A stretch of 48,475 nucleotides of DNA from Anaerovoracaceae bacterium (GTDB taxonomy: Bacteria > Bacillota > Clostridia > Christensenellales > Borkfalkiaceae), in contig CAVBZJ010000001.1 of NCBI GenBank assembly GCA_963599785.1, positions 17,701 through 66,175 on the forward strand. The letters are read 5' to 3'. Positions 1-37,808 of this stretch are shown piece after piece. The notes below the pieces were generated by a model. That model had not been told where the DNA came from. It worked only from the letters and a program-made list of their open reading frames with translations, and did not search any database. The translations under genes and the position numbers were made by a program. Positions within the stretch are counted from its first letter, which is position 1; each line of letters opens with the position of its first letter.

Positions 1-1928
1 GCCGCAAGCGTTATAATGAAAACCGTCGTCGTTTCCGCGGAATAAAGATTGCCCGCGCAACCGCTTTTTTCGGGTTTCTCGTCTTCCGCCGCCTCGTATT
101 TCTTTCCGAATTCCCCCGTTACCGTCACGTCCTTATCGAAGTCGGTATAAAAGGTTTCGGTCGGATAACCGATTGATTTTCCGTTGACGACGACCTTTTT
201 AAGCTCGTATCCCTCTTCCGCGGTAAAGATAAAGCGTATTCTTCCGTTTTTGATTTCGTACTCCGCCTTGCCGTTGCCGACGGAATCCGCGATAACGCGA
301 AGCTTTCTTACGAACACCTTGAAATGCAGATCCGCGGTCGGGTTTTTCACCTCGTAAGAATTATCCTCCGTAGCGACCGCTTCGCCGTTTAATTCCGCGC
401 GTTCTACCGTATAGCCCTCGTTCGTCAATATCTTAAACGTTACTCTGCCGTTTCTCTTAACGTAATAAATCGTCGCGCCGTTTTCTTCGTTTACTTCGGT
501 TTCTATTCCCGAAAGCTTATAGCTTATCTCGAAAACGAAGTTCTCTTTCAACTCCGCCCTGAATTCGTTGCCTTCGAGTTTTTTCTCATCGCCGTTCACG
601 GTGAAGGTTTTTACCGAATACCCCGAGCTTGGCTTTGCTGTAAATATTACCGTTCCGTTTTCCACTCTGTACTCCGCCGTTCCGCCGCCGCCCGCAACGT
701 TTACGGTCACGTCGTAAAGGTCGGAATAATCGTAAAATCTGTGGCTTTCGCTCCCTGCATAGCTTACGGAAATTCTGTCGCTGCCTTCCGAAAAGGAATA
801 AACGGTGTTCTTGTTTTCGACCGCCGCGGAAAATTCGGTTACGTTTCCTATTTCCGCTTCTTCGCCGTAGGTGTTCACGGAAATCGTTATTTCGGATATT
901 AAAGACGGTCCTTCGCCGAATACCGAATAAGGGAGACACAGCGTTCCGTTTTTGCCTTTTTCAATCGCTATCCCCTCGCCGTCGGCTATTACCTTGCCGT
1001 ATTCGTCGTTACCCGTCGCGAAGGAATATTCCCTGCCCTTTGAATAATCGGGAACGTAGGTTACGCCGCCGTGCTTTAAGGCTATTTTCACCTTTATCCC
1101 CTTTTCGCCGAGCGCGTTGAAATTAAAAAGCATCGCCGAACGCGCGTTTATCGGAGATGAGGACGAAAGGGTTATATCCGCAAAGCCTTCCGTTTTTATC
1201 ACGAGCGATTTAAGCCGCCCGTTTTCCGCGTAACCGTCCGTTACGTCGTACACCGTTTCGAGATTTTCGGTAAGAGTACATTTTTTCGCAGAAAACGCCG
1301 CGTTCGTCAGATTGCCTTCTTCGTCGAACCCGAGATTATCGAAGTCGGTCACGCTTCTGCCGCTTGTCGCGTTCAAAGCGTCCGCAAAGAACACGTTCCG
1401 CAATAAATAATGGTTTTTATGCGAGGTGTCGCCGACGAGCGTTATCTCCTTTAAGGTCACGTTCTCGTCGAGTACCTTTTTAAGCTCTATATAAATCTTG
1501 CCGTTAAAGCCCGTTTTCACGAGATACCAGCTCGTGTCCTCGAAGGGCTTGTTCGGCACGGTGAACCCCGCCGTGGTTACGTTCTCTATCCTTTCGCGGC
1601 TGTCGAGGTTATGCGCGTTCCCCGCCGAATCGGTAATAATAATCTGATAAAACGCGTATATATCGCCCGAAGCGTGTTCTACCGAATCCACCCGCATATC
1701 CAGCACGAGATATTCGTCCGTCGTTATCGGCATTTCGCCGTCCGCCGTTATTTTTACCTCCGCTTTTACGCCCGTAGCGTCGATTTTTATGCCCTCCGCG
1801 CGGACGTATCTTTCGGAAAGCTTGGCAGAATCCGCAAAAGCCGTAGTTTTTATGCTCGCCGCGCCCGCCGCAAGAAGCAGAATAAGAGAAAAAATCAACG
1901 TATACAGGATTTTAGTTTTCGCTTTCAT
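1..1928 (-). CDS. Secreted surface protein, 3' end cut by the window edge (at least 642 aa). It has a signal peptide, an N-terminal domain paralogous to the 1912..4008 and 5268..7382 products, beta-sandwich repeats, and the start of an SGC-motif C-terminal anchor.
   Basis: Absent from the ORF track because no stop codon lies in the window. ATG at 1928..1926 follows GGAGGAG (1934-1940) after 5 nt. I hand-translated 1861-1928 (MKAKTKILYTLIFSLILLLAAGA), 901-959 (KGKNGTLCLPYSVFGEGPS), 541-599 (VNGDEKKLEGNEFRAELKE) and 1-70 (EKSGCAGNLYSAETTTVFIITLAA), all in one frame without stops. Confidence 0.75.
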   Translation of the reverse strand, partial: MKAKTKILYTLIFSLILLLAAGAASIKTTAFADSAKLSERYVRAEGIKIDATGVKAEVKITADGEMPITTDEYLVLDMRVDSVEHASGDIYAFYQIIITDSAGNAHNLDSRERIENVTTAGFTVPNKPFEDTSWYLVKTGFNGKIYIELKKVLDENVTLKEITLVGDTSHKNHYLLRNVFFADALNATSGRSVTDFDNLGFDEEGNLTNAAFSAKKCTLTENLETVYDVTDGYAENGRLKSLVIKTEGFADITLSSSSPINARSAMLFNFNALGEKGIKVKIALKHGGVTYVPDYSKGREYSFATGNDEYGKVIADGEGIAIEKGKNGTLCLPYSVFGEGPSLISEITISVNTYGEEAEIGNVTEFSAAVENKNTVYSFSEGSDRISVSYAGSESHRFYDYSDLYDVTVNVAGGGGTAEYRVENGTVIFTAKPSSGYSVKTFTVNGDEKKLEGNEFRAELKENFVFEISYKLSGIETEVNEENGATIYYVKRNGRVTFKILTNEGYTVERAELNGEAVATEDNSYEVKNPTADLHFKVFVRKLRVIADSVGNGKAEYEIKNGRIRFIFTAEEGYELKKVVVNGKSIGYPTETFYTDFDKDVTVTGEFGKKYEAAEDEKPEKSGCAGNLYSAETTTVFIITLA

Positions 1929-4008
1929 CTTTTCTCCTCCTTAAAAGCAATATTGCCGCGCCGATAATCGCTGCCGCCGTCACAGGCAGTCCCGCCGTCA
2001 GCGCGGAGTTGCAGCCGCCCTTTTCGTTGTCGTTCGTTTCGGGCTTCTTTTCGACCTTCGTGAATTTCACGTTAAGATACGCGCCCGAAAGCAGCTTGCA
2101 TTTGTATTTACCGTTTTTCGGTGTTATCGTTTCGCCGTTTAAGCTTATTTCCGCGATTTCGTACCCGTCGTCTGCAACTATCGTAAATTCCACGCTTTCG
2201 TCCGCTTCGTCGAGCGTATAGTCCGCGTAACCGTTGCCTTCCGCCGTAACGCTTGCAAGGCTCTCGAAGATAACCGCCAGATAATTGTCTTTATCGTTTG
2301 CCGCAGTCACCTTTCCGTCTGTCGCCGAAATTTTTTCGCCGTTCAGATACGCTTCCGAAACCGTATATCCGAATTCGGTTTTTATCGAATATTCCACGGT
2401 CTTGCCGTCCTCGGATTTCTTCGGCGTTATTTCGCCGCCGTAATTCGCCGTGAACGAGCTTTTATATTCTCTGAATTCCGCCGAAACCTCGTAATCCTTA
2501 TCGAAAAGCGCGCGGTATTCGCCGTTTTCGTCCGCGTTGACGGGCTTGCCGTTCACCGTGAGCGAATAAAGATAACAGCCCGCGTTCGGAGTGGCTTTGA
2601 TAACGAGTATTTCGCCCTCTTCCCGATAAACAAGGCTTCCGTTTTCGGTCTCCGCAAGCTCCACTCTTCTCCCGCCGAAGGTCGCGATTATCGTTATATC
2701 CTCGCGGTATTCGGTTATCGTGTATTCCCCGTTTTCAAATTCTTCCGTTATATCTTTTCCGTTCAGAGTAACGCTTTTAAGGCTGTATCGCGCGTCCGTC
2801 GGGCGAACCTTTATCGTAACGCTTCCGTCGGCGTTCACCGTCTTTTCCGCGCTGCCCATATTCTCCGAGCCGGCGGCGACTTCGCATTTTATCTCCGCCT
2901 TTTCAAACACCGCGCTGATCTCGATATTGCCGTTTATTACTATCTCCGTGCCTTCGATTTCCCGCCCGTTCGCGGTTATTTTCACCAGCTTATACCCGTT
3001 GTCGGGAACGGCTTTGACGTAAGCAATAGTTTTGTCGCCGTTTTTATAATAGGAAAGCGTGCCGTTTTTCACCGTTTTGTCCACGCTCACCGCGTATTCG
3101 AGACATTTTGCGGAAAACTCCGTAAGCGTTGCTAAATTCGTTCTGTACACGCCGTTCACAAGCTGATTTTTTACGTCGCTTCCGTTGCTTTTCACCGAAT
3201 AGAAATACCAGCCCGATTCCGCTTTGACCTCTATTTCCGCCGTTTCGCCCTTTTCGGCGTATTTAACAGAAGTTCCCACCGTTTGCGAAACGATTCTTTT
3301 ACCGTTTCTCGTAAGCGCGTTGTTTATTATTTCCGTGCTTTCGGGAGTAAACGCGCGTTTGTTTTCGTTATTTTTTCCTTCGCAGTAGAAAATCTCCCTG
3401 ACGTCGTACGTCGCGTAGTGCGTCATATCGGAAGTAAAGGATATTCCGTCCACCGCAACGCTTTCGGTTAAAAAGTCTCCGAGGTAAATATAGAACGTTC
3501 CGTCAAAGCCCTTTTTTATAACGTAATAGCTCTGCGGCTCGGCTGTCGTTCCAGAAGTTTTTTTGTTCGCTACCGAATAGGCTTTGCCGTCCGTCGTGTA
3601 GCACTTTATTCTGTCGGCGGTAACTCTTCCGCTCCCGCCCGTCGCGGCAAAATCCTCTGCGGAAAAGCCCTCGGGCATAGTTTTTATAAGGTTATAATCC
3701 GAGGGAAGCGCGAGCGGATATTCTGTTTCCCCGTTATAAAGGGATATTCGCATATACGCGAACGCGTCCGCAGTGTTTTTTATGTCTTTCACGTTGAAAG
3801 AAACGGCGATAAAGCCGTCCTTATTCACGGTCGTCTCGGCAAAATCGTATCTTAATTCCGCCAGCACGCCCTGCGCGACTATTTCGTCCGCGGCGGAAGT
3901 CTCCGCTTTCGCGGCGGTCGGAACGCTTATTGCGAAAGCCGCCAAAGCTCCGCATATTATAGTTACGGCAAGGGCTGAAATTTTTCTTAAACGCATCGGT
4001 TTCCCCAT
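1912..4008 (-). CDS. Secreted surface protein (698 aa). It has a signal peptide, an N-terminal domain of unknown function (YYVIKKGFDGTFYIYLGDF), about five divergent InlB-B-repeat-like modules, and a C-terminal GGC motif followed by a TM helix and an RRRK tail.
   Basis: ORF track. The N-terminal hydrophobic signal is ISALAVTIICGALAAFAISVPTAAKA. Repeats follow the pattern G..V.[IV].A.P..GY. The C-terminus is EKGGCNSALTAGLPVTAAAIIGAAILLLRRRKDESEN. Confidence 0.8.
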   Translation of the reverse strand: MGKPMRLRKISALAVTIICGALAAFAISVPTAAKAETSAADEIVAQGVLAELRYDFAETTVNKDGFIAVSFNVKDIKNTADAFAYMRISLYNGETEYPLALPSDYNLIKTMPEGFSAEDFAATGGSGRVTADRIKCYTTDGKAYSVANKKTSGTTAEPQSYYVIKKGFDGTFYIYLGDFLTESVAVDGISFTSDMTHYATYDVREIFYCEGKNNENKRAFTPESTEIINNALTRNGKRIVSQTVGTSVKYAEKGETAEIEVKAESGWYFYSVKSNGSDVKNQLVNGVYRTNLATLTEFSAKCLEYAVSVDKTVKNGTLSYYKNGDKTIAYVKAVPDNGYKLVKITANGREIEGTEIVINGNIEISAVFEKAEIKCEVAAGSENMGSAEKTVNADGSVTIKVRPTDARYSLKSVTLNGKDITEEFENGEYTITEYREDITIIATFGGRRVELAETENGSLVYREEGEILVIKATPNAGCYLYSLTVNGKPVNADENGEYRALFDKDYEVSAEFREYKSSFTANYGGEITPKKSEDGKTVEYSIKTEFGYTVSEAYLNGEKISATDGKVTAANDKDNYLAVIFESLASVTAEGNGYADYTLDEADESVEFTIVADDGYEIAEISLNGETITPKNGKYKCKLLSGAYLNVKFTKVEKKPETNDNEKGGCNSALTAGLPVTAAAIIGAAILLLRRRKDESEN

Positions 4009-4038
4009 CTTTTTATCCTTTTGATTTTTTACGTTTTT

Positions 4039-4067
4039 ATTATAAATGGTTATAATGCCATTATCAA
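4039..4067 (-). promoter_or_regulatory. Sigma-A type promoter for the 698-aa surface protein gene
   Basis: Minus strand reads TTGATA (4067-4062), a 17-nt spacer, then TATAAT (4044-4039). It lies about 30 nt upstream of ATG 4008. Confidence 0.5.
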
Positions 4068-4240
4068 TATGAAAAGTAATTATATTGCTTTTAAAAAATA
4101 ACTTTTTCCCGAAAGCGAAGACGGCGCGGTTTGTCGCGTTTTCCCGTTGTTTTCAGGCTTTTTTCGCGATTTTGCCCTTAAATTATTTTTTTGACCGCGA
4201 TATAAAGTTGTTTTTTTTAATTATTTTTTTCAAAATTTCG

Positions 4241-4269
4241 TTGATTTTTCTTCGCCCGTATATTATACT
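4241..4269 (+). promoter_or_regulatory. Sigma-A type promoter of the AraC gene, placed so that the mRNA would be leaderless
   Basis: TTGATT (4241-4246), a 17-nt spacer, then TATACT (4264-4269). Only 6 nt (ttcggt) separate the -10 from ATG 4276, and no Shine-Dalgarno sequence is present. Confidence 0.45.
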
Positions 4270-4275
4270 TTCGGT

Positions 4276-5109
4276 ATGAAGTTCAAGTACCTTATAAAAA
4301 ACAGCCTGCCGAAGAACGTTAAAGTTCCGCCGCACGCTCACAACTGCTACGAGTTTATTTTTTACGTTTCCGCCGAGGGGGAAATTCAATATAACTCCGA
4401 CCACAGAAGCTCGTCCAAAGAAAATCTCACCTACACGCCCTTTTCGGGCAAAACGATTAAAAGCGTGCCGTTTGCGGACAAATCTTTCATCATTATCCCG
4501 CCCGACATAGTCCACAACGAGATTAACCGCAAAAAATCCTCGGTCGTCGCCATAGGCTTCGACGCGGAAGGCGAAGAAAAAAAGCTTATAGAAGGCTTGA
4601 TGCTCAAATCGTTCGACGATACCTTTAACATTCAGAGCGCGGTGGACGAAATTCTGAAAGAGTTCTTTGAAGCTCCCACCCATTCGGGACTGATGATAGA
4701 AACGCTCATCACGCAGATTCTTATCAGAATATCGCGCCTGACGCTTAAATCCAACGAACAGGTGGACTTTAATTTTATAAGGCAGTATCTCGACGAATAC
4801 TATATGACCGACGTGGACGTAGACGCGCTTTCGGGACAGATAGGCTACTCCAAATCTCATTTCCGCACGCTGTTCCGCAAAAAATTCAACGTCAGCTTTA
4901 AGCAGTACATTCTCAATAAGCGGCTCGAATACGCCGAATCCGCGCTGAAAAACTCTTTTCTTCCTCTCAACAAAATCGCAACGAACAGCGGCTTCGAGGA
5001 CTATTACCAGTTCAGCGTGTTCTTTAAGAAAAAAACGGGGCTTTCACCCAAGGTTTACCGCTCCAAATACGGCAAATCGATAGACGAAAACGGAAACGAT
5101 TTCAAATAA
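4276..5109 (+). CDS. AraC-family transcriptional regulator (cupin-like N-terminal domain plus AraC-type HTH)
   Basis: N-terminal PPHAHNCYEFIFYVS resembles a cupin motif. The C-terminal region (SGQIGYSKSHFRTLFRKKFNVSFKQYILNKRLEYAESAL...ATNSGFEDYYQFSVFFKKKTGLSPKVYR) is a typical dual-HTH AraC signature. Confidence 0.85.
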   Translation: MKFKYLIKNSLPKNVKVPPHAHNCYEFIFYVSAEGEIQYNSDHRSSSKENLTYTPFSGKTIKSVPFADKSFIIIPPDIVHNEINRKKSSVVAIGFDAEGEEKKLIEGLMLKSFDDTFNIQSAVDEILKEFFEAPTHSGLMIETLITQILIRISRLTLKSNEQVDFNFIRQYLDEYYMTDVDVDALSGQIGYSKSHFRTLFRKKFNVSFKQYILNKRLEYAESALKNSFLPLNKIATNSGFEDYYQFSVFFKKKTGLSPKVYRSKYGKSIDENGNDFK

Positions 5110-5146
5110 AATAAACGCGGAAGAAAAAGCTTCCGCGTTTGTTTTT
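5105..5146. terminator. Bidirectional intrinsic terminator
   Basis: An 11-bp stem pairs 5113-5123 (aaacgcggaag) with 5130-5140 (cttccgcgttt) around a 6-nt loop. An A-run lies on the left and a T-run on the right. It closes both the AraC gene (+) and the small ORF / 704-aa gene unit (-). Confidence 0.7.
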
Positions 5147-5261
5147 ACATTCCGCCGTCCCAAAGATCGTCGTATTTTACGAAATTGTCGCAAGAGACGC
5201 AAAGCACGTCCGATACGCTCGTTATTATTTTCGCTTCGGGTTTAAGATATTTCGTTTTCAT
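5145..5261 (-). CDS. Unannotated 38-aa small ORF (MKTKYLKPEAKIITSVSDVLCVSCDNFVKYDDLWDGGM), paralog of 33400..33516
   Basis: Hand-translated. ATG 5261 lies 6 nt after the TAG of the 704-aa gene and 9 nt after GGAGTGGAG. The stop TAA (5147-5145) abuts the terminator. It has the same length and motif pattern as the second small ORF. Confidence 0.6.
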   Translation of the reverse strand: MKTKYLKPEAKIITSVSDVLCVSCDNFVKYDDLWDGGM

Positions 5262-5267
5262 ATGCTT

Positions 5268-7382
5268 CTACTCCACTCCCGCAAATTTTTTCAGTAACGC
5301 AACCTGCTCTTCTTCGAGCGTTTCGCCGAGATTAGAAAGGGCGATTTCCGCAACCGATTTCACGCTTCTTGCCGCAAGCTCGTAGTAAACCGTCGTGGTT
5401 TTGCCGTTTACCGTTACGGTCACGAAAGCCCTTGCGGTAAATTCTCTTTCATATCTGCTTTCGGGAATATCCGTCAGCACCGCGTTGAATTTCTTCTCCG
5501 TCTCGGTATCCGAAAAGCTTATTTCGCCCGTTCTCGCCGCGTTTTCCGTGTCCAAAGTCAATTCTTCGCCGTCGCCGATAAGGTCGGTCGGGAGTAATAC
5601 AACCCCTATTTCAACCGTCGCGAGCGAGCTTAATTTATCGAAGCCCTGTTTATCCGCCGAATATTCAAACCGAAGCCCCGCAGGCTCGGTAAGTCTTATC
5701 GACGCGCCAAGAAATTCTATATCGAGCTTAACGATCACAGCCGTCGTGTCGGAGTTTACGACGATTTCGTCCTTCGCGAAGTAAAGCTTTCCGTCTATTT
5801 CGTAACCGATAAAGCCCGTTTCGCCGTTTTCGGGCAAAACGAAGGTTTCTCCCTCGGTTATCTCGGTTTCCGCTCCGTCAACCGTGATTTTCACCTTGAC
5901 CTTCGCGGTAAAATTCACCGCGATTTCCAAATCGCCGTCCGTTTCCGCCGTATAAACGCCGCCCGAAAGCTGAACAAGGCTTCCGTTTACGGTCAGCTCG
6001 CCCTTATACCCCGTGGGCGCGACGGGCGTTATTTTCGCGTTGCCTTCTGTCAAATCCACGGTAACGCCGCAATTCGCTATCGTTTCCGCGTAAGAAACGG
6101 CAAGCTTAACGCCGTTGGTTTCTATATTAGCTTTGTCGGTAAAAATTTTGCCTTCGGTGTAATCTATCCTCGTTTTGTTTTCGTCCTTTACCGAAGAACA
6201 GAAATACATTTGTCTTATGGTATAATCCTGAATATATCCTTTGTTCGGGTGATAAATTTTTATGCCGTCGAACGCCGTTTCGGAGGTAAAGAAGTCTCCG
6301 AGCCAAATATAGAACGTTCCGTCGAACGCCTTTTTGATAACGTAGCTGCTTGCGGAGGCGTTACCCTTATTCGGTACGGAATACGCCGCGCCCTCGCTCG
6401 TATAGCAGTTTATTCTGTCGCTCTTCACCCTTGCGCCATTCTGAAATTGAGAAGCGGTCATACCCTCGGGCAAAGCGGTTATGCTCGCGAAGTTTTGCGG
6501 CAACGAAAGATTATAATAGGTTTCGCCCGATTTAAGATATATTTTATAGTATAAATAGGTGTCGGTAGTTCCCGAAAGGGAATCTATCTTCATATCTATC
6601 GCGAGGAAGCTTTGATTCGAGACGGTAATCGGCGAATTGAATCCGTATTCGACGGTTTCCTGTCCGGAAACGGAATTTACCTTCGTTTCGCCCGTTTCAA
6701 ACCATAAAACGTCGCCGCTCGCAACGTAATATTCGTCGCCTTCGGTATTTTTCACGATATTTTCCGCAAAGAATATATCGCCTATGGTGAACGTAGGCTT
6801 GTGAGTGCCGTCCGTATTCACTTTGAGGTCGGACATTTCAAACGTTCCGTCGAAATAGTCGGGAAGATAAATGAACACCTTTCCGTTAAAGCCCTTTTTC
6901 ACCGTGAACCATACGGTGCTGTCGGTCACGCTGCCGTTGACCTTATTCGGCATCGCGTAGCCCTTTTCGGTAGTGAGATAGTTTATTCTGCTGCTCGAAA
7001 TTCTCACTCCGCCTGCTCCGCCGTAATAGTCGGCTTTGGTAAAGCCTTCGGGGTATTCGGTTGCGGAAGTCATATAATCCGCCGCCATAACGAGCAGTTT
7101 TTCCGCCCCGCCGCCGCATATCGTAAAATGGAAGGGCGTAAAGGTATCGGTAACGCCCGAGCTTATCGTGTTAAGTTCTATCGCGAGGTACTTATACTTT
7201 GCCGTGTCTACGGAAAGCGTTTCCACGCCCGATATGGTTTTCGCCGCGCTTGACGATAGCGTAAACTCGCGTTCGATGTTCTTTGCTTCGGCGGTTTTTA
7301 TGGCGCACACGCCCGAAACAACGACTATCGAAAATAACGCGACGAGTATCGCCAGCATCGCTTTTTTCATTGTTTTCGTCAT
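5268..7382 (-). CDS. Secreted protein (704 aa) with two copies of the N-terminal surface-protein domain and a C-terminal GASIRL..GLRF domain shared with the 780-aa protein
   Basis: The signal peptide is MLAILVALFSIVVVSGVCAIKTAEA. The duplicated motifs are VWFTVKKGFNGKVFIYLPDYF and SYVIKKAFDGTFYIWLGDFF. The C-terminal LGASIRLTEPAGLRFEY parallels EIRASGTAGLRFTS in the 31044..33386 product. Confidence 0.8.
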   Translation of the reverse strand: MTKTMKKAMLAILVALFSIVVVSGVCAIKTAEAKNIEREFTLSSSAAKTISGVETLSVDTAKYKYLAIELNTISSGVTDTFTPFHFTICGGGAEKLLVMAADYMTSATEYPEGFTKADYYGGAGGVRISSSRINYLTTEKGYAMPNKVNGSVTDSTVWFTVKKGFNGKVFIYLPDYFDGTFEMSDLKVNTDGTHKPTFTIGDIFFAENIVKNTEGDEYYVASGDVLWFETGETKVNSVSGQETVEYGFNSPITVSNQSFLAIDMKIDSLSGTTDTYLYYKIYLKSGETYYNLSLPQNFASITALPEGMTASQFQNGARVKSDRINCYTSEGAAYSVPNKGNASASSYVIKKAFDGTFYIWLGDFFTSETAFDGIKIYHPNKGYIQDYTIRQMYFCSSVKDENKTRIDYTEGKIFTDKANIETNGVKLAVSYAETIANCGVTVDLTEGNAKITPVAPTGYKGELTVNGSLVQLSGGVYTAETDGDLEIAVNFTAKVKVKITVDGAETEITEGETFVLPENGETGFIGYEIDGKLYFAKDEIVVNSDTTAVIVKLDIEFLGASIRLTEPAGLRFEYSADKQGFDKLSSLATVEIGVVLLPTDLIGDGEELTLDTENAARTGEISFSDTETEKKFNAVLTDIPESRYEREFTARAFVTVTVNGKTTTVYYELAARSVKSVAEIALSNLGETLEEEQVALLKKFAGVE

Positions 7383-8621: not shown

Positions 8622-8969
8622 TTATTTTGCGGCGTTTATCGCGCGGATAATTTTATCGTATTCCGCTCTGACCTTTATAAATGCCGCGTCCGCGCCGTCA
8701 AAGCTTCCCGCGCGTAAAATTTCCGTAAGCTCCGAGGAAACGGAAGCAAGCGCGGTAAACCCGAGGTTCGCCGCAACCCCCTTTAAGGTATGCGCCGCGC
8801 GAAACGCTTCCGATACGTCTTTCTCGTTCATCGCGGAGCATAGTTCAAAAAACGTTTTATCCTCCGCAAACCTTAAAACAAAACGCTCGGTCATCCCTTC
8901 GCTCAATAATCTGTTCTTTACCGACTCGAAATTTTCGCCGATATTTTCGTAAAAATCACGCGTTTTCAT
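8622..8969 (-). CDS. Histidine phosphotransfer (Hpt) protein
   Basis: It is 115 aa and carries the Hpt signature AAHTLKGVAANLGF. It overlaps the hybrid kinase gene by 14 nt. Confidence 0.8.
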   Translation of the reverse strand: MKTRDFYENIGENFESVKNRLLSEGMTERFVLRFAEDKTFFELCSAMNEKDVSEAFRAAHTLKGVAANLGFTALASVSSELTEILRAGSFDGADAAFIKVRAEYDKIIRAINAAK

Positions 8970-11121
8970 CTTTGGCTACCAAGTACCCCCCCCCGTCGTT
9001 TTCTATTGCAAATACTATCGTTTTTACGAGTTTCTTGGCGTCTAACGGCTTCGTTACGCAACCGCTCATACCCGCACCCTTCATTCGCTCTTCGTCGTCG
9101 TAGAAGGCGTTTGCAGTCATTGCGATTATAGGAACGGTCGCCGCGTCCTCTCTGTCCATCGCGCGGATTTCTTCCGTCGCGGCAACTCCGTCCTTTACGG
9201 GCATCATAACGTCCATAAGCACCGCGTCGAAAAAGTGCGTCGGGCTGACCGAAAAAAGCACTATCGCTTCTTCGCCGTTTTTTGCGGAATACACCGCCGC
9301 CCCCGCGGTTTTAAGCATAAACTCCGCTATTTCAAGGTTAATCTCATTATCCTCCACGACGAGAACGTTATACCCCGCAAGCGGCTCTTCGGTATCTTCT
9401 ACTTTCGCGGCGGCGGGCGCGCTCGTCGCAAGCTTGAACGGTAGCGTTACGGTGAACGTCGTGCCGACGTCCTTTTCCGATTTTACGTTTATTTCGCCGT
9501 TCATTTTCTCGACCGCTCTTTTTACTATCGCAAGCCCCAAGCCCGTTCCGCCGTTTCTGTTGTCCGCGCTCAGAGCTTCCTGCTCGAACGGCTCGAACAT
9601 CTTCTTCTGAAAGCTTTCGCTCATTCCCACGCCCGTATCCGCGCAGGTTATTACCAAAGTAACGTTATCTTCTTCCCCGCATACTTCGCGCACGGTGAAA
9701 TCTACTCTGCCGTTCGGCTTGTTATATCTTATCGCGTTCACTATAAGGTTAGTGCAGACTCGTTTTAACAAAGTCGCCGCGCCGTACAGCTCGTCGTGAA
9801 CGACGTCCGTCGCCGAAGTAGTAAGGGTTACGCCGCGCTCGCCCGCCTGAAAGTTCATAACCGCGTTCAAATCGTTCACAAGCTCGCCGACCGAGAAGTT
9901 TTCGTTTTTGACGGGCAAATCCTTCGCGTCGAGCTTCGTCATATCCAGAACGTCGTTCACGAGGTCTAAAAGATACCCCGAAGCCTTCCAGATTTTATCC
10001 CGACATTCCTTTTGTCTTTCGGGGTCGTCCGCGTAATACTCGCCTATTTTTATCATTCCGCGAATACCGTTTATAGGCGTTCTGACGTCGTGGCTCATTC
10101 GGCGCAGAAAGTCGGTTTTAACCTCGTTCGCGCGGATAGCTTCGTTTGCGAGCCTGTCAAGTTCTTTTCTGTACTCCGCGTCCTTTTTGTTTTGTTCCGC
10201 AGTCCGCGTGCGCATAAATCTGTGTTGAAGCCCCGTCATCGCGGTAAGCGCGGCGAAATAGAACAACACTATATAAGCCGAAACGAGCGACCTGTTTGCA
10301 AAAACCGCTTCGTCGGACATATAAACGTATATAAAATAACCCTTGCATTTTTCTCTTATCGCGTAAACCTTTTCGCCGTCCGCCCGTTCGAGAACTCTGT
10401 ACTTTGCCGTCCTGCGAAGCTTCTGCACCACGGGGCAATCCTCCGCGGCGATTCCTATAAGGTTTTCGTCGTTTGCGGCTATGACGTACGTTCCGTCCGT
10501 CACCACGACTTTACCTTCTTTCTGGAAATTATAGCCTTCCAAAAGTGTTCTTACCGATAGCTGCGAGCTTTCTATGCTGCTTATTTCTCTGCGCACGAAC
10601 CCGAGGATAACGCCGCGAACGTCCGACCTTCCGACGACCGCGTAATCGTAACAGAAGCCCTGCTCGAATATTCGCTCGGTATACGTTTTATCAAGATTAT
10701 CCGCCGCCGAAGCAAAGACCTTTATTTCGGTAGCCCACTCTTCAAAATGCTCGCCCTCGGGAACGTAGCCGCCGTATTCCTTGTCTTCCGCATTCCACAA
10801 AACCACGCCCGTAAGCCGTTTTCTTTCCGCAATAGCGCGGAACAGATTTTCGTCGCCCATACACAGCATAAGCTCGTCGCGAAGCTCGCCCGTTTTGTCC
10901 GCAACGGCGATAAGGTCCTTCGCGCAGGTTTCGGCGACTAATTCGTCGTATCTTATGCACTGCTCTTTAACGTAGTCCGCGACGTCGGTCATAAGGGTAG
11001 CCGCCGAACGCTTATCCTCGCCCGTTGCCAGCACGAATATGAACACGCAGAGCATCGCCCCTACTATCGCTATTATAAAGCACAGCTTGGCGAGCGAAAT
11101 TTTTTTACTTTTCTTTGTCAT
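8956..11121 (-). CDS. Hybrid sensor histidine kinase: two TM helices flanking an extracytoplasmic sensor of about 250 aa, then HisKA, HATPase_c and REC domains
   Basis: The H-box is RMSHDVRTPINGI and the G-box is GGTGLGLAIVKRAV. The receiver region is VLVVEDNEINLEIA...VLMDVMMPVKDG...IIAMTANA. The TM segments are LCFIIAIVGAMLCVFIFVLA and AYIVLFYFAALTAMTGL. Confidence 0.9.
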   Translation of the reverse strand: MTKKSKKISLAKLCFIIAIVGAMLCVFIFVLATGEDKRSAATLMTDVADYVKEQCIRYDELVAETCAKDLIAVADKTGELRDELMLCMGDENLFRAIAERKRLTGVVLWNAEDKEYGGYVPEGEHFEEWATEIKVFASAADNLDKTYTERIFEQGFCYDYAVVGRSDVRGVILGFVRREISSIESSQLSVRTLLEGYNFQKEGKVVVTDGTYVIAANDENLIGIAAEDCPVVQKLRRTAKYRVLERADGEKVYAIREKCKGYFIYVYMSDEAVFANRSLVSAYIVLFYFAALTAMTGLQHRFMRTRTAEQNKKDAEYRKELDRLANEAIRANEVKTDFLRRMSHDVRTPINGIRGMIKIGEYYADDPERQKECRDKIWKASGYLLDLVNDVLDMTKLDAKDLPVKNENFSVGELVNDLNAVMNFQAGERGVTLTTSATDVVHDELYGAATLLKRVCTNLIVNAIRYNKPNGRVDFTVREVCGEEDNVTLVITCADTGVGMSESFQKKMFEPFEQEALSADNRNGGTGLGLAIVKRAVEKMNGEINVKSEKDVGTTFTVTLPFKLATSAPAAAKVEDTEEPLAGYNVLVVEDNEINLEIAEFMLKTAGAAVYSAKNGEEAIVLFSVSPTHFFDAVLMDVMMPVKDGVAATEEIRAMDREDAATVPIIAMTANAFYDDEERMKGAGMSGCVTKPLDAKKLVKTIVFAIENDGGGYLVAKDENA

Positions 11122-11930
11122 AAGCCCACCGCCGCGGTTTCGTAATCTATCCCGTATTTTTTGAGAATTTTTGCGGTAAACCCGTCGTTTTGCATCACTT
11201 TAAGCGCGTCGTTTATAAGCCTTGCAAGGTTTTCGCCCTCATCCTTTTTAAAAGCCGCGCCGAGATTTACCGCGATAAGGGTTTCGTCTAAAATCCTGTA
11301 TTCGCCCGTATTGTTTTTCATTCTTTCGCGAAGAGCCGTTTCGTGTCCCGCGACCGCGTCCGCATACCCGTTTTTGAGCGCGGCGAAAATATGCTCGAAA
11401 TCGGTGAAACAATATATATGCCCGAGCGGAGGAATCCGTTCGTCCTTACCCGAAGAGAACAGCTCGTCCGCCTTGGAGGTCGCCTGCACCGCCACCGATT
11501 TTCCCGCAAGATCGGAAAAAGTATATATTCCGCTGTTTTCTCTCACCGCAAGCACCTGACGGCTTTTCATATACGGTCCTGCCCACGCGTACAGATCTTC
11601 TCTGCCCGTCATAGAAAAACAGCCCCAAAGGCAATCGACGTCGCCTCTTTCAAGCATTTCGTCTTTTTTGCTCCATTCTATCTTGGTAAAAACAGCCTTT
11701 TTGCCTATCCTTTTACACGCTTCTTCGGCAAGCTCCACGTCTATTCCCGCAAACTCGCCGTCCTCGTCTCGATAAAAATACGGAGCGTATTCGTCGCTGC
11801 CGACGGAGACGGTTTCAAGCTCTTCGTCCTGCCTGTCGTCGCCGCCGTTTCCGCACGCCGAAAAAAAGGGAACGGCAAACGCCGCGGCTAACACCGCCGC
11901 AACGGCTTTAAGAAATTTTCTTTTCTTCAT
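11118..11930 (-). CDS. Lipoprotein, family-3 (amino-acid type) solute-binding protein. It is probably the ligand-sensing partner of the kinase.
   Basis: The lipobox is PFFSACGNG. The 270-aa length is typical of periplasmic-binding-protein folds. Its stop overlaps the kinase start (ATGA, 11118-11121). Confidence 0.7.
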   Translation of the reverse strand: MKKRKFLKAVAAVLAAAFAVPFFSACGNGGDDRQDEELETVSVGSDEYAPYFYRDEDGEFAGIDVELAEEACKRIGKKAVFTKIEWSKKDEMLERGDVDCLWGCFSMTGREDLYAWAGPYMKSRQVLAVRENSGIYTFSDLAGKSVAVQATSKADELFSSGKDERIPPLGHIYCFTDFEHIFAALKNGYADAVAGHETALRERMKNNTGEYRILDETLIAVNLGAAFKKDEGENLARLINDALKVMQNDGFTAKILKKYGIDYETAAVGL

Positions 11931-11950
11931 CTTCGGTTTTGCACGCTCCT

Positions 11951-13882
11951 TTATAAATTTTTCAGCTCGTCCGAAGCTTCGTTAAGACATTCGATAAGTA
12001 TCGGATTGAACGCGCCGCACTCGCCGCCGACTATCATTTCTATCGCCTTTTCGTGCGGGAACGCCTTTTTATACACCCGTTCGGAAACGAGCGCGTCGTA
12101 CACGTCGCCTATCCCCACCACCTGCGCGGCTATGGGAATTTCGTCGCCTTTAAGCCCGTCGGGATAACCTTTTCCGTCGTACCTTTCGTGATGCCAGCGG
12201 CAAATTTCGTAAGCGTAACGCATCAGCGGTTTTTTACGGTAATCGCCGCGGGAATTCCCCACGCTTTCTATGATTTTCGCGCCGTAAACGGTGTGCTTTT
12301 TCATCTCTTCGTACTCTTCTTCGGTGAGCTTTGCGGGCTTGTTCACAATCTCTTCCTTCACCGCAAACTTACCCACGTCGTGGAGCGCGGAAGCGGTGCT
12401 TATAAGAAATATATCCCTGCCGTGCAGTCCGTAAGACTGCGTTTTGGTAACGAGCTTTTCTAAAAGCAACTCGGTGATTTTGCCTATGTTTTTGACGTGG
12501 TTGCCGCCGAAGCCGTTACGGAACTCGACGAGCTCGCCGAAAATATCTATAAGAGTGTTCGCCGCCTTTTCCTTTTCGGTCATTTCCCGCGTGACGGCGG
12601 AAATAAGCCGTTTATGCTCTTCGTAAACGGTAACGGTATTTTTAACCCTTCTGTAAACGACCTTCGCGTCGAACGGGCGGTTGATATAATCGGAAACGCC
12701 CGCTTCGTAAGCCCTTCGCACGGTATCTTCCGTCTCGTCGCCCGAAATGGCGATGACGGGTATTTCTTCGAGGAGGTGATTGAAGGTCATAAATTCCAAC
12801 ACGTCGAAGCCGCTTATTTTCGGCATAATTATATCGAGAAGGACGGCGGAAATTTCCGCGCCGTATTTTTTCAGCGCTTCTATACACTCCTCGCCCGAAG
12901 CGGCTTCCCGTATTTCGTATTCGCCTTTCAGCATTTCGGAAAGAATCTCTCTGTTGAACGCAGAGTCGTCCACGATGAGAAGAAGCGGTTTTTTGGTCGC
13001 CTCTTCCGGAAGCTCTTTCACGCTGTCGCCGACGAGCAGGTCTTTTTTACGCTTTGCCCTGTACATAAATTCGTCCGCGCGCTTAACAAGCTCTTCCGCG
13101 CGTTCGCCGTTGCCCCACGCCGCGCCCGCGCTGACCGATATGTTAATCGTCTCGAAGTCCTTAACGTCTATTTCGCGCATTTCGCGAACTATTTCCTGCA
13201 TTTCCGCGTTGAAAGCTTCTTGGGAAGCGCGGCGAAGAATTATAAGGAACTCGTCTCCGCCGTACCTTATTATATAATCGTTCGCTTTGACGTGTTTTTT
13301 AAGCGCGCTTGCGGCGGCGGAAAGAACCGCGTCTCCCGCAGAATGCCCGAACAGGTCGTTATATATCTTAAAATCGTCGAGGTCTATCATCGCAACGCCC
13401 GCGTCCAGAGGGTAACGGCGGAGCTTTTCCTCGTAATAACGACGGTTAAACGCGCCCGTAAGCACGTCGATGTACGTTTTCTCGTAATAATCGCCGAGTC
13501 CCTTGACCGCGTTGCCGCCGCCGAAATCTACGAGAAGATTCCCGTCGAATTTCTTGACTTTTTCCATAACGCAAGGCTTGCCGTCTATCTCCATAAAGGT
13601 CGCCACGGCAAGGTACGCGTCTTTGCCCGAAAATTCAAGCTTCGCCCTTTGCGTTTTCTCCGCGAAAGCCATTATGGAAACGCAGTTCGCGCACACGAAC
13701 CCGTCGTTCGTAAAAAACGAACAACCGAGCTTTTCCAGACCGAACCGCTCCGTTCTCGCATGCCTTACGTCCGAAATATCCTTTTCGGAAAGCACTCTCG
13801 AAACGTACCCGTGTTCGCTGCAAAACCGTATTTCCTCTTCCGCTTCCTTCGCGGTCATTCTTTTATATTCTTTCTCGCTCAC
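11951..13882 (-). CDS. GGDEF diguanylate cyclase, REC receiver and HD-GYP phosphodiesterase fused in one protein
   Basis: The GGDEF motif is IIRYGGDEFLIIL, and KAND replaces the RxxD I-site. The REC region is LLLIVDDSAFNREILS...LLDIIMPKISG. The HD-GYP motifs are HDVGK and HHERYDGKGYP. The GTG start at 13882 follows AAAGGAGAGG. Confidence 0.9.
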   Translation of the reverse strand: MSEKEYKRMTAKEAEEEIRFCSEHGYVSRVLSEKDISDVRHARTERFGLEKLGCSFFTNDGFVCANCVSIMAFAEKTQRAKLEFSGKDAYLAVATFMEIDGKPCVMEKVKKFDGNLLVDFGGGNAVKGLGDYYEKTYIDVLTGAFNRRYYEEKLRRYPLDAGVAMIDLDDFKIYNDLFGHSAGDAVLSAAASALKKHVKANDYIIRYGGDEFLIILRRASQEAFNAEMQEIVREMREIDVKDFETINISVSAGAAWGNGERAEELVKRADEFMYRAKRKKDLLVGDSVKELPEEATKKPLLLIVDDSAFNREILSEMLKGEYEIREAASGEECIEALKKYGAEISAVLLDIIMPKISGFDVLEFMTFNHLLEEIPVIAISGDETEDTVRRAYEAGVSDYINRPFDAKVVYRRVKNTVTVYEEHKRLISAVTREMTEKEKAANTLIDIFGELVEFRNGFGGNHVKNIGKITELLLEKLVTKTQSYGLHGRDIFLISTASALHDVGKFAVKEEIVNKPAKLTEEEYEEMKKHTVYGAKIIESVGNSRGDYRKKPLMRYAYEICRWHHERYDGKGYPDGLKGDEIPIAAQVVGIGDVYDALVSERVYKKAFPHEKAIEMIVGGECGAFNPILIECLNEASDELKNL

Positions 13883-13929
13883 AAAAGCCTCTCCTTTTCA
13901 GCGAACCGCCTTATTCGTTATTCTTTTTC

Positions 13930-13958
13930 AGTATAACATTCGCAAGCGATTTTTGCAA
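13930..13958 (-). promoter_or_regulatory. Sigma-A type promoter of the phosphorelay operon
   Basis: Minus strand reads TTGCAA (13958-13953), a 17-nt spacer, then TATACT (13935-13930). Confidence 0.5.
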
Positions 13959-13977: not shown

Positions 13978-14016
13978 TAAAAAAACGGCGAAAGTCCTTA
14001 AACCTTTGCCGTTTTT
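13978..14016 (-). terminator. Intrinsic terminator ending the SipW/TasA-like/giant protein operon
   Basis: Minus strand reads ACGGCAAAGG-tttaagga-CTTTCGCCGT followed by TTTTTTT. It starts 8 nt after the stop of the 1993-aa gene. Confidence 0.65.
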
Positions 14017-14023
14017 CGGTTTT

Positions 14024-24896: not shown

Positions 24897-26111
24897 TTAC
24901 TTTCTCTTTATCTTCGCAACGCGAACGCAGTAGTGCATACCGTACGGGAAATCGGTTATGCGAACGCGAAGTTTATCCCCTTCCCGTGCAAAGTTCAGCT
25001 CCTCTTCATTATCTATCCACGCGATATTTTCAATTTCCTCGGGATAATCGACGAGAACGGTCTTTTTCGCGTTTTTCACTATATTAAGGTGTTCATCCGC
25101 AATCATTTCCAGCCCCTTGACGACCAGATAATCGTACTTTTCACCCCTTAAAACGAAGCTATCTTCTTGCACGACGAGAGGTTTAACGTCGTAAACGCTT
25201 TCGCCGTATACTTCTATCCACTTTCCTATCTCCGACAAAATGCCCTTTTCTATACCCTTTATCGTTCCATCCGCCATAGGTCCTACGTTAAGAAGATAGT
25301 TACAACCGAACTTCCTGCAATCCACGAGGTCGCCGATAAGTTCCGATACGCTTTTATAGTTCACGTCGAACGCCGAATAGCCCCAGTTGTTGTTCATAAT
25401 CTGGCACATTTCACCCGCGCGCGGACGATCGGAATTATCGACTACCGCGGGCTTGCCGCGTTCGAAGGTTACGCTGTCTATCTCGGGCGAGCTGACCTTC
25501 CCCTGAAATCCGAGTCCCGTGTTGTTTATAATCATCGCTTCCGGACGATATTTTCTTATAAGGGCGTAAAGTTCCTTTATCTCCCATTCTTCCTGCGTTT
25601 TATCCCAGCCGCCGTCGAACCAGAACCCGCCGATATTTCCGTATTCGGTGCATAAAAGCTTTACGCTTTCTCTTAAATACACGAGATATTCCTTGAAATT
25701 CTTCTCGAAACGCTCGTCGCGCCAATCCATAAGCGTGTGGTAAAACATAGGTGTGATGCCGTTTTTATAGCACTCGTCCACGAACTCCTTAACGAGGTCG
25801 CGCTTCGTGGGGGTGTGCATAACGTCGTAATCGGAAAGCCCTTTCGTATCGTACAAAGAAAAGCCGTCGTGGTGACGAGTCGTGAGCGAAATATACTTGC
25901 AGCCCGCGGACTTTGCCGCCGCCACGAGTTCTTTCGCGAAGTCTTTTTTAACGTTGAACTTCGGTAAAAGCGCGTCGTACTCTTCCCGAGACATCTTGTT
26001 GAAATAATACGCCCATTCGCCCCTGCCGCATACGCTGTACAAGCCGTAATGCACGAACATTCCGAAGCCCATTTTGCCGAACCTTTCGACGTAACCGTAA
26101 TCTTTCGTCAT
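24897..26111 (-). CDS. Alpha-L-fucosidase (GH29), cytoplasmic
   Basis: It carries FGMFVHYGLYSVCGRGEWAYY and TTRHHDGFSLYDT, both GH29-type motifs. I moved the start to the ATG at 26111, which follows AAGAGGAAAATT. The upstream 26 codons in the track lack an RBS. Confidence 0.85.
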   Translation of the reverse strand: MTKDYGYVERFGKMGFGMFVHYGLYSVCGRGEWAYYFNKMSREEYDALLPKFNVKKDFAKELVAAAKSAGCKYISLTTRHHDGFSLYDTKGLSDYDVMHTPTKRDLVKEFVDECYKNGITPMFYHTLMDWRDERFEKNFKEYLVYLRESVKLLCTEYGNIGGFWFDGGWDKTQEEWEIKELYALIRKYRPEAMIINNTGLGFQGKVSSPEIDSVTFERGKPAVVDNSDRPRAGEMCQIMNNNWGYSAFDVNYKSVSELIGDLVDCRKFGCNYLLNVGPMADGTIKGIEKGILSEIGKWIEVYGESVYDVKPLVVQEDSFVLRGEKYDYLVVKGLEMIADEHLNIVKNAKKTVLVDYPEEIENIAWIDNEEELNFAREGDKLRVRITDFPYGMHYCVRVAKIKRK

Positions 26112-26225
26112 AATTTTCCTCTTTATATTATTTCTCCCGAACGCCTGCATATTTCGCGCTCGGGAGAATTTTAACAGTTTTTTCGGCAATCCGTCAAGCG
26201 ATTTACCGCATCTTTAAGTTTCCGC

Positions 26226-28262: not shown

Positions 28263-28287
28263 AAAATTCCTCCTATCTTTCAACTCA

Positions 28288-28316
28288 ATTTTAACACGGC
28301 AAAAAGGTCAAGTCAA
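28288..28316 (-). promoter_or_regulatory. Sigma-A type promoter of the lipoprotein-fucosidase operon
   Basis: Minus strand reads TTGACT (28316-28311), a 17-nt spacer, then TAAAAT (28293-28288). Confidence 0.55.
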
Positions 28317-28324
28317 TACGCTAT

Positions 28325-28403
28325 CTCGTCTATTTCTTACTCTCGGTTATCCTGTTTATTCCCGCATTGTTCTGTTTTGCCAAATTTTTCCTCTCCGTTA
28401 TCC
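28325..28403. repeat. Conserved upstream activator-site block with two direct repeats CTCTC(G/C)GTTATCC spaced 51 bp apart (copy A)
   Basis: 28325-28357 (ctcgtctatttcttactctcggttatcctgttt) matches 44680-44712 at 31 of 33 positions. The repeats are at 28340-28352 and 28391-28403. The offset to the -35 box is identical to that in copy B. Confidence 0.7.
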
Positions 28404-28430
28404 TTTTTACTATTTATTTTTGCAAACGCA

Positions 28431-28458
28431 TTGACAAACGCTTTTAAAGCGGTATAAT
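28431..28458 (+). promoter_or_regulatory. Sigma-A type promoter of the divergent AraC gene
   Basis: TTGACA (28431-28436), a 16-nt spacer, then TATAAT (28453-28458). Confidence 0.55.
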
Positions 28459-28496
28459 AGAAACCGAGAAAACCCGAAAAAGGAGCAGAAAAGGCT

Positions 28497-29363: not shown

Positions 29364-29384
29364 TAATATTATCTACGCAAAGAA

Positions 29385-29436
29385 AAAACCTTTCTCCCGT
29401 CGGAATTTCCGCGAAGAAAGGTTTTTATTGTTTTAT
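29385..29436. terminator. Bidirectional intrinsic terminator
   Basis: The stem pairs aaaacctttct (29385-29395) with agaaaggtttt (29415-29425), followed by tattgtttt. An A-run on the left serves the minus-strand operon that ends at 29461. Confidence 0.6.
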
Positions 29437-29460
29437 CGTTTTAGTTTTATGCGCCCGCAA

Positions 29461-31005: not shown

Positions 31006-31043
31006 ATACGCGCCTACCGCAGGTCCGTAATAGGCAGACAGCT

Positions 31044-33386: not shown

Positions 33387-33399
33387 CTTTCCGCCCTCC

Positions 33400-33516
33400 T
33401 TAACCCCAGTCCTCGAAATCGGAGAAATCGTTGTCGCCCAAAGCAGGCGACATCGAAATGACGTCCGCGCTGTTTATCAAAAGCAGCGCAACGCGTGGTT
33501 GTTCATAGTGTTTCAT
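33400..33516 (-). CDS. Unannotated 38-aa small ORF (MKHYEQPRVALLLINSADVISMSPALGDNDFSDFEDWG), paralog of 5145..5261
   Basis: Hand-translated. AGGAGG lies 9 nt upstream of ATG 33516. The stop TAA (33402-33400) overlaps the RBS of the 780-aa gene. Confidence 0.6.
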   Translation of the reverse strand: MKHYEQPRVALLLINSADVISMSPALGDNDFSDFEDWG

Positions 33517-33589
33517 TATTATTTTCCTCCTATAATAATTTTTCTTTCTTATTTTCTCGGCTTTTCAGCCGTTTTTTCCGTAGGTTTGT

Positions 33590-35734: not shown

Positions 35735-35770
35735 CTTTTTCTCCTTTTCCGATATATCGCAAAGCCGCCG

Positions 35771-37741: not shown

Positions 37742-37808
37742 TCAGGTTAAAGTTAAATAAAATCAAGTAAAAAATTCAATGTAAATATTGTGCAAAACCG
37801 ACTTTCTG

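Follow-up and report, generated by a model that had tools for sequence, protein, structure and literature searches.

The DNA analysed in this study is a stretch of 48,475 nucleotides (nt), hereafter the window, which covers positions 17,701-66,175 of contig CAVBZJ010000001.1; all coordinates are given in window numbering. On its minus strand, an operon for a SipW-type signal peptidase and secreted proteins, headed by a predicted riboswitch for cyclic di-GMP (c-di-GMP), is followed directly by a phosphorelay operon, the response regulator of which carries both a GGDEF domain and an HD-GYP domain, the types that make and degrade c-di-GMP. The conservation of this arrangement in relatives suggests that the ancestor of a clade of uncultured human-gut Clostridia already carried both units as a single cassette, which was then inherited as a whole. 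A single circuit is thereby suggested, but not proven. Overall, we put the probability that the relay materially controls the neighbouring riboswitch at roughly 0.6.

Layout of the two operons and their adjacency in relatives

The features of the relay operon, with protein lengths in amino acids (aa) and genes taken from the list of open reading frames (ORFs) and from Pfam, are as follows.

13959-13930, minus strand: promoter, TTGCAA-17-TATACT with extended TG, 9/12 in a consensus scan
13882-11951, minus strand: response regulator, 643 aa
11930-11118, minus strand: solute-binding protein (SBP), a lipoprotein of the SBP_bac_3 family, 270 aa
11121-8956, minus strand: hybrid histidine kinase, 721 aa
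8969-8622, minus strand: free-standing Hpt protein, 115 aa
8564-8518, minus strand: terminator found by scan, a 17-bp stem (8564-8528) with eight GC pairs, then a T run

The SipW operon (24305-14024, minus strand) encodes six proteins. Together with its leader and the terminator that separates it from the relay operon, it is made up of the following.

24755-24784, minus strand: promoter, TTGACA, 18 nt, TATAAT, read from the sequence
24697-24543, minus strand: c-di-GMP-I (GEMM-I) aptamer with a structured insert of about 65 nt in the P2 apical loop, assigned by Rfam clan match and orthologues
24556-24508, minus strand: riboswitch terminator, the 5' arm of which consists of the 3' strands of aptamer P2 and P1 (hairpin 24556-24515, -23.2 kcal/mol, then U7)
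24305-23526, minus strand: secreted protein 1, 259 aa, of an uncharacterised family, a candidate major fibre subunit
23420-22641, minus strand: membrane protein, 259 aa, with one internal transmembrane segment (residues 92-116)
22629-22030, minus strand: SipW-type (archaeal/ER-type) signal peptidase I (TIGR02228, SipW model)
21913-14024, minus strand: variable cargo, secreted proteins of 252, 332 and 1993 aa with a shared type of N-terminal signal
13979-14017, minus strand: intrinsic terminator between the operons, from folding (-16.8 kcal/mol, z -3.54, then a U run)

The relay genes, which overlap by 4 nt (11118-11121) and 14 nt (8956-8969), form a single transcription unit (13959-8518). A preliminary description of this DNA had proposed such an operon with a promoter at 13958-13930 and a terminator at about 8563-8523; the ORFs lie exactly as it had placed them, and both signals were recovered by the scan. 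It had named the same four components with the SBP first, whereas transcription starts with the regulator and proceeds through SBP and kinase to Hpt. The regulator start codon is a GTG at 13882 with AGGAG in front, and the SipW operon ends at 14024, 141 nt before it, which agrees with the distance of less than 150 bp given earlier.

Promoter-like sites are not enriched in the window (7 found and 4.4 expected in the consensus scan). The relay promoter is kept base for base in relatives, and its columns TTTGCAAAA...TATACT are invariant in an alignment of the window with four loci of relatives (L009, L047, L012, and L040; L numbers denote such loci throughout). The terminator between the operons is also kept in relatives, including loci that lack the relay. 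Co-transcription of both operons was considered and is unlikely, since they are separated by a terminator and a promoter that are both conserved. Long plus-strand ORFs over the relay genes (e.g. 12497-13936) were set aside as antisense artefacts; the domain matches all fall on minus-strand products.

Relatives were sought from the regulator side by exact look-ups of regulator homologues, and from the SipW side in one genome per species and then in metagenomes. The loci in which the two units adjoin, together with one variant (L026), are listed with the identity of their regulator to that of the window.

L001 and L007, 94-95%: full arrangement
L009, L010, L015, L035, L039, and L050, 71-72%: relay directly downstream of the SipW operon
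L005, L006, L051, and L052, 55-56%: full arrangement
L028 and L029, 54%: full arrangement
L030, 52-53%: full arrangement
L026 (1427-9861), 51%: variant with two SipW-like peptidases (260 and 256 aa), a 938-aa protein, and a 769-aa GGDEF-EAL-type phosphodiesterase, then the relay
L054, 41%: relay directly downstream of the SipW operon

The preliminary description had named a lack of synteny in relatives as one result that would refute the link between the operons; the adjacency holds at regulator identities from 94% to as low as 41%. Outside the block, no two of the lineages with recorded flanks have the same neighbours: a nucleoside hydrolase in the window, a GDSL lipase/rhamnosidase in L001, ribosomal S6-SSB-S18 in L005, Abi_2/pyruvate kinase in L028, and Cas9 in L030. 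Identity declines in parallel across the genes of the SipW operon and those of the relay. Since the divergence of the two units tracks in this way, co-inheritance is suggested rather than repeated chance juxtaposition.

The phosphorelay and its regulator

The regulator matches the Pfam families GGDEF (1.8e-33, 116 bits), Response_reg (7.5e-20), and HD_5, which is of the HD-GYP type (1.2e-22). Its domains were delimited from Pfam and from an AlphaFold2 (AF2) model, in residue numbers of the minus-strand product.

1-135: N-terminal domain with three cysteines (Cys3 domain)
137-280: GGDEF domain
302-413: receiver (REC) domain
about 440-640: HD-GYP domain (HD_5/HD Pfam match at about 460-618)

In a family alignment of 19 members, down to 48% identity, the motifs of both enzymatic domains are invariant throughout (19/19). 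These are RYGGDEF at 206-212 (GGDEF at 208-212), D167/D169/D170, N146-R147-R148, and K277 in the GGDEF part, and H462, H501-D502, H530, HHERYDGKGYP at 564-574, and D593 in the HD-GYP part. The receiver has D305, D306, the acceptor D350, and S380, the three aspartates being family-invariant. As judged from the sequence, the catalytic and phospho-acceptor residues of the regulator are thus all intact. Its closest solved relatives in the PDB are PleD for the GGDEF domain (3.7e-32), and PmGH (4mcw, 6.5e-31) and PA4781 (4r8z, 2.6e-27) for the HD-GYP domain, and these best matches are active enzymes.

Many cyclases, though not all, have an RxxD inhibitory site (I-site) five residues before GGDEF. 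This site is absent from the GGDEF domain of the regulator, and since KAND (199-202) stands in its place, I-site product inhibition of the cyclase would be unlikely. An attempt to read the nucleotide specificity of the cyclase from the residue aligned with PleD Asp344 was dropped, as Asp is missing from this position in active cyclases too, DosC being one example.

The first 135 residues (window 13478-13882) contain three invariant cysteines, C54, C64, and C67 (CX9CX2C), and have no Pfam match even at E 10. The AF2 model gives an alpha/beta module with low confidence around the cysteines; by the order of its predicted secondary-structure elements alone it looks PAS-like. Through the Cys3 domain, the cyclase may receive a redox or metal signal. 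In the same model, a long helix (406-452) joins REC to HD-GYP. The same four Pfam domains occur in 120 of the 120 closest database relatives, among the matches listed. A full-text search for the name "GGDEF-REC-HD-GYP" returned no publication, and "GGDEF-HD-GYP" appeared in three passing mentions only; the architecture is flagged here as an unstudied family.

The kinase matches HisKA, HATPase_c (1.3e-27), and Response_reg in Pfam, with phosphorelay residues His344 in SHDVRTP, Asp637 in LMDVMMP, and Lys691. Two transmembrane segments (13-34 and 282-298) flank its extracytoplasmic sensor region of about 250 aa, for which no Pfam match was found even at E 10. The Hpt protein matches its Pfam family at 1.4e-12 and has His60 in AAHTLKG.

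The SBP matches SBP_bac_3 at 2e-26 and has a lipobox, FFSAC, with Cys26. No transporter genes accompany it; therefore, it is a sensor-type solute-binding protein. Its best matches are polar amino-acid binding domains, among them the GlnPQ SBD (1.7e-30), and Arg110 aligns with the conserved Arg of the family, whereas the Asp column is occupied by Gly195-His196 (window 11343-11348), conserved in every orthologue. By comparison with HisJ/LAO, we take the Arg position to bind the alpha-carboxylate of the ligand and the Asp position its alpha-ammonium group. As the ammonium-binding Asp is replaced by Gly-His, the ligand would be carboxylate-bearing and probably not a plain alpha-amino acid; the earlier label of an amino-acid-type SBP holds at the level of the family and is not borne out at this position.

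Taken together, the domains and motifs of the four genes point to a complete relay of SBP, hybrid kinase, Hpt, and receiver, ending in an output that would make or degrade c-di-GMP, as had first been described. Operon structure, translational coupling through the two gene overlaps, and co-conservation support these proteins as putative phosphotransfer partners.

The riboswitch and the SipW operon

No match to Rfam at the gathering threshold was found in the window. By E-value, 24546-24694 matches a member of the clan, c-di-GMP-I-GGC (RF03167), with 33.3 bits (E 1e-4; cut-off 59); the P2 insertion of about 65 nt explains why it stays below gathering. Compact leaders of orthologous loci score above the cut-off of 35 for RF01051, L017 with 54.3 bits and L018 with 52.4 bits, and their aptamer cores are identical or nearly so to that of the window. 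The leaders of L007, L010, and L016 score 35.8 bits against the same model.

A covariance model, R1, was built from seven leaders including that of the window, which as a seed sequence scores 139.9 bits. Besides the window, R1 matches 11 genome or exact-look-up loci and 20 metagenome loci, in each case immediately 5' of the gene that opens the SipW operon. The aptamer of L012 is found by R1 and not by a simple regular expression. A TTGACA/TATAAT pair is also present upstream of the aptamer in orthologous leaders.

The GNRA loop is a GAGA on ACCGUC/GGCGGU in P1b, and the P2 hairpin is present. The equivalents of the ligand contacts are the G before GCAAAA, the A after GACGC, and the C in GGUUGC, which we take to map to G20, A47, and C92 of Vibrio Vc2. 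Since a G and not an A stands at position 20, the sequence points to c-di-GMP as the ligand rather than 3'3'-cyclic GMP-AMP (3'3'-cGAMP). Two pairs show compensatory double changes, C-G to U-A in P1b (L018) and A-U to G-C in upper P2 (L017); the L018 aptamer carries, in addition, a change on one side of a pair (G-U to A-U) and a mismatch (C.A). The P2 insert (window 24565-24650) varies in sequence and folds as a coaxial extension of the stem in each sequence variant. The insert-bearing aptamer is the majority form in the clade, with about 25 loci.

The minimum-free-energy fold of the full leader forms the terminator and excludes aptamer P1/P2, and the overlap between aptamer and terminator is seen in all orthologous leaders. 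Since the terminator and the 3' strands of the aptamer are mutually exclusive, the element is predicted to be an ON switch. By the evidence of its orthologues, the leader is assigned to the c-di-GMP-I riboswitches, and the earlier proposal that such a riboswitch gates the neighbouring operon gains support from the clan match and from the compact orthologues that pass the RF01051 cut-off. In the accessible portions of the literature that combines SipW, c-di-GMP, and riboswitch, no c-di-GMP riboswitch on a SipW operon is reported.

The signal peptidase scores 67.8 bits against TIGR02228 (cut-off 51.85) and 4.6e-17 against the SipW model, and its Ser74 and His112 are invariant in alignment A1. 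Against the SipW equivalog it scores 62 bits, below the cut-off of 190; by this score it is a SipW-like relative and not the Bacillus orthologue. The 259-aa membrane protein adjoins SipW in all related loci.

Secreted protein 1 has 804 database homologues, none with Pfam domains, and itself has no Pfam, NCBIfam, or PDB profile match. Its N-terminus consists of a basic and hydrophobic segment followed by GGYTFSKY. The AF2 model is a beta-sandwich (predicted local distance difference test, pLDDT, 70.6), and its Foldseek matches are all weak jelly-roll matches, among them TasA 8aur (probability 0.77, E 7.6e-3) and 5of2; over these two structures the probability is 0.69-0.77 and the TM-score 0.26-0.35. 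Filing the secreted proteins in the TasA family was rejected, as the fold matches are weak and sequence matches are nil. The cargo proteins have no Pfam or NCBIfam match, and the 1993-aa protein has no PDB match. Four of the six operon proteins have the same kind of N-terminal signal, in which basic and hydrophobic stretches are combined with a short G/S-x-S/T-aromatic motif. The operon products are described here as SipW-dependent secreted proteins, possibly TasA/BsaA-like and fibre-forming.

From strain to strain the cargo is exchanged within a constant setting of riboswitch, first two genes, SipW, and relay. The cargo type of the window (252, 332, and 1993 aa) is also found in the distant loci L005, L028, L030, and L021. 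In the 94%-identical relative L001 (7852-9833), proteins of 170 and 483 aa take its place, and in L012 (3360-5287) the cargo is a 178-aa protein and a leucine-rich-repeat protein of the DUF285/BspA type.

In the surroundings of the block, large minus-strand ORFs (1912-7382 and 26226-39341) mostly have no Pfam match (704, 685, 514, 780, and 510 aa), and a 698-aa ORF has Flg_new_2 repeats only. Glycan-degradation genes lie nearby, namely an alpha-L-fucosidase (24897-26189) and a DUF4838 protein (35771-37741), as well as an AraC regulator on the plus strand (28497-29363).

The proposed circuit, its alternatives, and known systems

In the circuit proposed here, the SBP lipoprotein would report an extracellular ligand to the extracytoplasmic domain of the kinase, and phosphate would pass from kinase His344 to kinase Asp637, then to Hpt His60 and regulator Asp350. 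Phosphorylation of the regulator would shift the balance between synthesis and degradation of c-di-GMP. Analogy with RpfG and the long helix between REC and HD-GYP favour a switching-on of the phosphodiesterase; the Cys3 domain would then govern the cyclase as a second, intracellular input. By binding the aptamer, c-di-GMP would hold the 3' strands of P2 and P1 and prevent the terminator from forming, and the resulting read-through would turn on the SipW operon and the export of fibre- or adhesin-like proteins with strain-variable cargo. A stronger form of this proposal is a dedicated, pathway-specific circuit, in which the SBP/kinase/Hpt sensor acts on a bifunctional enzyme and the ON riboswitch of the SipW fibre/adhesin operon is one read mainly or only by the product of that enzyme. 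This form is tentative, and we place it somewhat below even odds.

Several points weigh against the proposed circuit. c-di-GMP is diffusible, and only the window was seen, so that other cyclases and phosphodiesterases of the genome lie outside it. The relay and SipW operons have separate promoters with a terminator between them. In the receiver, the Lys of the KPF motif, which is otherwise near-universal, is replaced by Arg402 (RPFD; window 12677-12679), invariant in 19/19. The window aptamer lies below Rfam gathering and has a large P2 insertion, and the core aptamer is nearly invariant among loci, so that covariation support is thin (two pairs). The pair is also broken in a number of loci. 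Eight of them (L012, L036, L040, L042, and L044-L047), and probably L019, L033, and L038 too, keep the riboswitch and SipW genes without the relay; in L057 the cargo genes are followed by a convergent gene instead of the relay; and in L004 a relay stands behind an integrase fragment without a SipW operon. Regulators of about 50% identity stand alone (L024), between two SBP-kinase-Hpt sets (L031), or with Hpt only (L032).

The first of these groups, the loci that keep the riboswitch and SipW genes without the relay, is monophyletic in the SipW tree. After the last cargo gene, the eight listed above retain an in-frame regulator fragment of 19-38 codons (residues about 96-133), and the three that were aligned (L012 5280-5800, L040 5350-5930, and L047 4830-5410) keep both the inter-operon terminator and the relay promoter. 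Since terminator, promoter, and regulator fragment remain in place, these sequences indicate that the relay was deleted from an ancestral full cassette in this subclade. The adjacency is thus of ancient origin and strongly retained, although lineages can do without it.

The other loci differ in kind. By our reading of its translation, the convergent gene of L057 would encode a glycyl-tRNA synthetase. The relay of L004 (9464-12022), which lies 6 kb from a 23S-5S-tRNA cluster upstream, has a regulator called as an 852-aa fusion with a phage-type integrase N-terminus and a kinase split into two ORFs, and it is probably a rearranged, decaying copy. In L031 (5991-15896), the regulator lies between an SBP_bac_3 set and an SBP_bac_1 set, with a stand-alone receiver, which suggests two inputs converging on one enzyme. 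The distant SipW loci L020-L023 (at most 50% identity) have no riboswitch, and no GGDEF, REC, or HisKA gene in the flanks seen.

The metagenome-assembled genome CAKQQY01 holds two SipW loci, L008 and L010. L010 has riboswitch and relay. L008 (1-470) has lost the aptamer together with the 5' terminator arm but keeps the promoter and the 3' arm, and its expression is probably constitutive. As this genome carries L008 beside the relay-bearing L010, loci without a relay may be second copies that are supplied in trans. In view of the relay-less loci, the relay-only locus, and the paralogous regulators elsewhere, the riboswitch can be served by other sources of c-di-GMP and the relay can serve other targets. 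The circuit, for which the preliminary description had considered a closed form possible, can therefore not be called closed.

These observations bear on the possibility that the relay controls the general c-di-GMP pool, or acts on other targets, and that the adjacency is no more than inherited gene order in a narrow clade. The lineages that keep the riboswitch operon without the relay, the relay without a SipW operon in L004, the separate promoters and intervening terminator, and the paralogous regulators, which adjoin ATP synthase/topA, MoxR-type genes, or other kinases, would all fit such a role. However, the adjacency holds to 41-56% regulator identity while the recorded flanks all differ, the cargo swaps that take place between SipW and relay do not separate the two, and the relay of L026 adjoins another c-di-GMP phosphodiesterase and two SipW genes. 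A general controller of this kind is therefore regarded as unlikely. The regulator could instead be a one-way enzyme like RpfG, with HD-GYP as its sole regulated output and the GGDEF domain serving as a GTP sensor, a dimeriser, or a constitutive low-level cyclase, in which case the relay would lower c-di-GMP and switch the fibre operon off. The modelled succession of REC, long helix (406-452), and HD-GYP resembles RpfG-type proteins, the RxxD I-site is missing, and GGDEF domains are known as allosteric GTP sensors in GGDEF-EAL proteins. On the other hand, the invariance of the GGDEF sequence, the metal-binding Asp residues, and the NRR substrate motif in 19/19 argues for retained cyclase catalysis, and the best PDB matches are active cyclases; we consider the one-way enzyme doubtful.

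It may also be asked whether the window leader is a decayed riboswitch in which the P2 insertion blocks the ligand, so that the operon is controlled otherwise. The low Rfam score would agree with decay, even against the variant model, and L008 shows that aptamer loss occurs. However, the insert occupies the apical loop of P2, where it forms a coaxial extension of the stem; the compact orthologues that pass Rfam share every core position, the GNRA loop, and the terminator overlap with the window; and the insert-bearing form is in the majority, which would be unexpected under decay. Decay thus appears very unlikely. The proposed circuit of relay, c-di-GMP, and ON riboswitch is retained as the preferred reading.

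How a diffusible messenger made by many enzymes can give pathway-specific output is a standing question in c-di-GMP signalling. The sensor, an enzyme that would write and erase the messenger, the RNA receptor, and the regulated surface structure all lie within 16 kb here, which makes the cassette a compact candidate for riboswitch-mediated specific signalling and a module that lends itself to heterologous reconstitution. If the stronger form of the proposal is true, c-di-GMP signalling would here be made pathway-specific by a receptor RNA encoded beside the enzyme. The cassette also hints at how uncultured, abundant human-gut Clostridia may time the deployment of strain-variable adhesive fibres.

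Among known systems, RpfC/RpfG of Xanthomonas is a hybrid kinase relay onto a REC-HD-GYP phosphodiesterase. Both relays end on a receiver fused to HD-GYP through a long helix. Unlike RpfC/RpfG, the system in the window belongs to a Gram-positive gut anaerobe and has a separate Hpt, an SBP lipoprotein as presumed receptor, an N-terminal Cys3 domain, an intact GGDEF domain, and Arg in place of the receiver Lys. The combination of an SBP with a hybrid kinase, Hpt, and response regulator is that of LuxP-LuxQ-LuxU-LuxO in Vibrio and of TorT-TorS-TorR. However, the NCBIfam LuxQ and TorS models match only the cytoplasmic core of the kinase (228 vs a cut-off of 1200, and 275 vs 676 bits), its sensor domain is unrelated (no Pfam match), and the output is enzymatic rather than DNA binding. 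Phosphorylation-controlled GGDEF enzymes are known in PleD/WspR; in the window regulator, by contrast, GGDEF comes before REC, the I-site is absent, and HD-GYP follows.

In Clostridioides difficile and the Bacillus cereus group, a c-di-GMP riboswitch and a transcription terminator are found upstream of surface genes, and high c-di-GMP favours attachment. To our knowledge, cyclases or phosphodiesterases have not been described adjacent to the riboswitch targets in these organisms. In the window, the enzyme and its sensor are co-inherited beside the riboswitch operon, and the regulated genes are SipW-dependent. Surface structures of C. difficile under c-di-GMP riboswitch control have been reviewed (PMC6366702). 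In Borrelia burgdorferi, the hybrid kinase Hk1, with extracytoplasmic sensor domains, REC, and Hpt, feeds the adjacent c-di-GMP-making regulator Rrp1 (PMC4013479). Hk1 has sensor and Hpt fused, Rrp1 is REC-GGDEF only with phosphodiesterases encoded separately, and there is no riboswitch target, which sets this pair apart from the window relay.

The controlled locus is closest in kind to B. subtilis tapA-sipW-tasA and Clostridium perfringens sipW-bsaABCRSD, although the secreted proteins of the window have no sequence likeness to Pfam TasA/camelysin-type models and only weak fold likeness to TasA. The C. perfringens locus encodes SipW and several secreted polymer-forming proteins (PMC7395162; bioRxiv 10.1101/2024.11.04.621531), and its own two-component system activates the sipW promoter (PMC7395162). 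Both loci thus join SipW to secreted proteins and have signalling genes at the 3' end, those of C. perfringens being dedicated to the locus. BsaR binds the sipW promoter directly, whereas the window regulator lacks a DNA-binding domain; its effect would run through c-di-GMP and an RNA switch. Overall, the components are all of known kinds and their combination is new; what distinguishes the cassette from known SipW loci is that a bifunctional c-di-GMP enzyme and an RNA receptor would replace the DNA-binding regulator.

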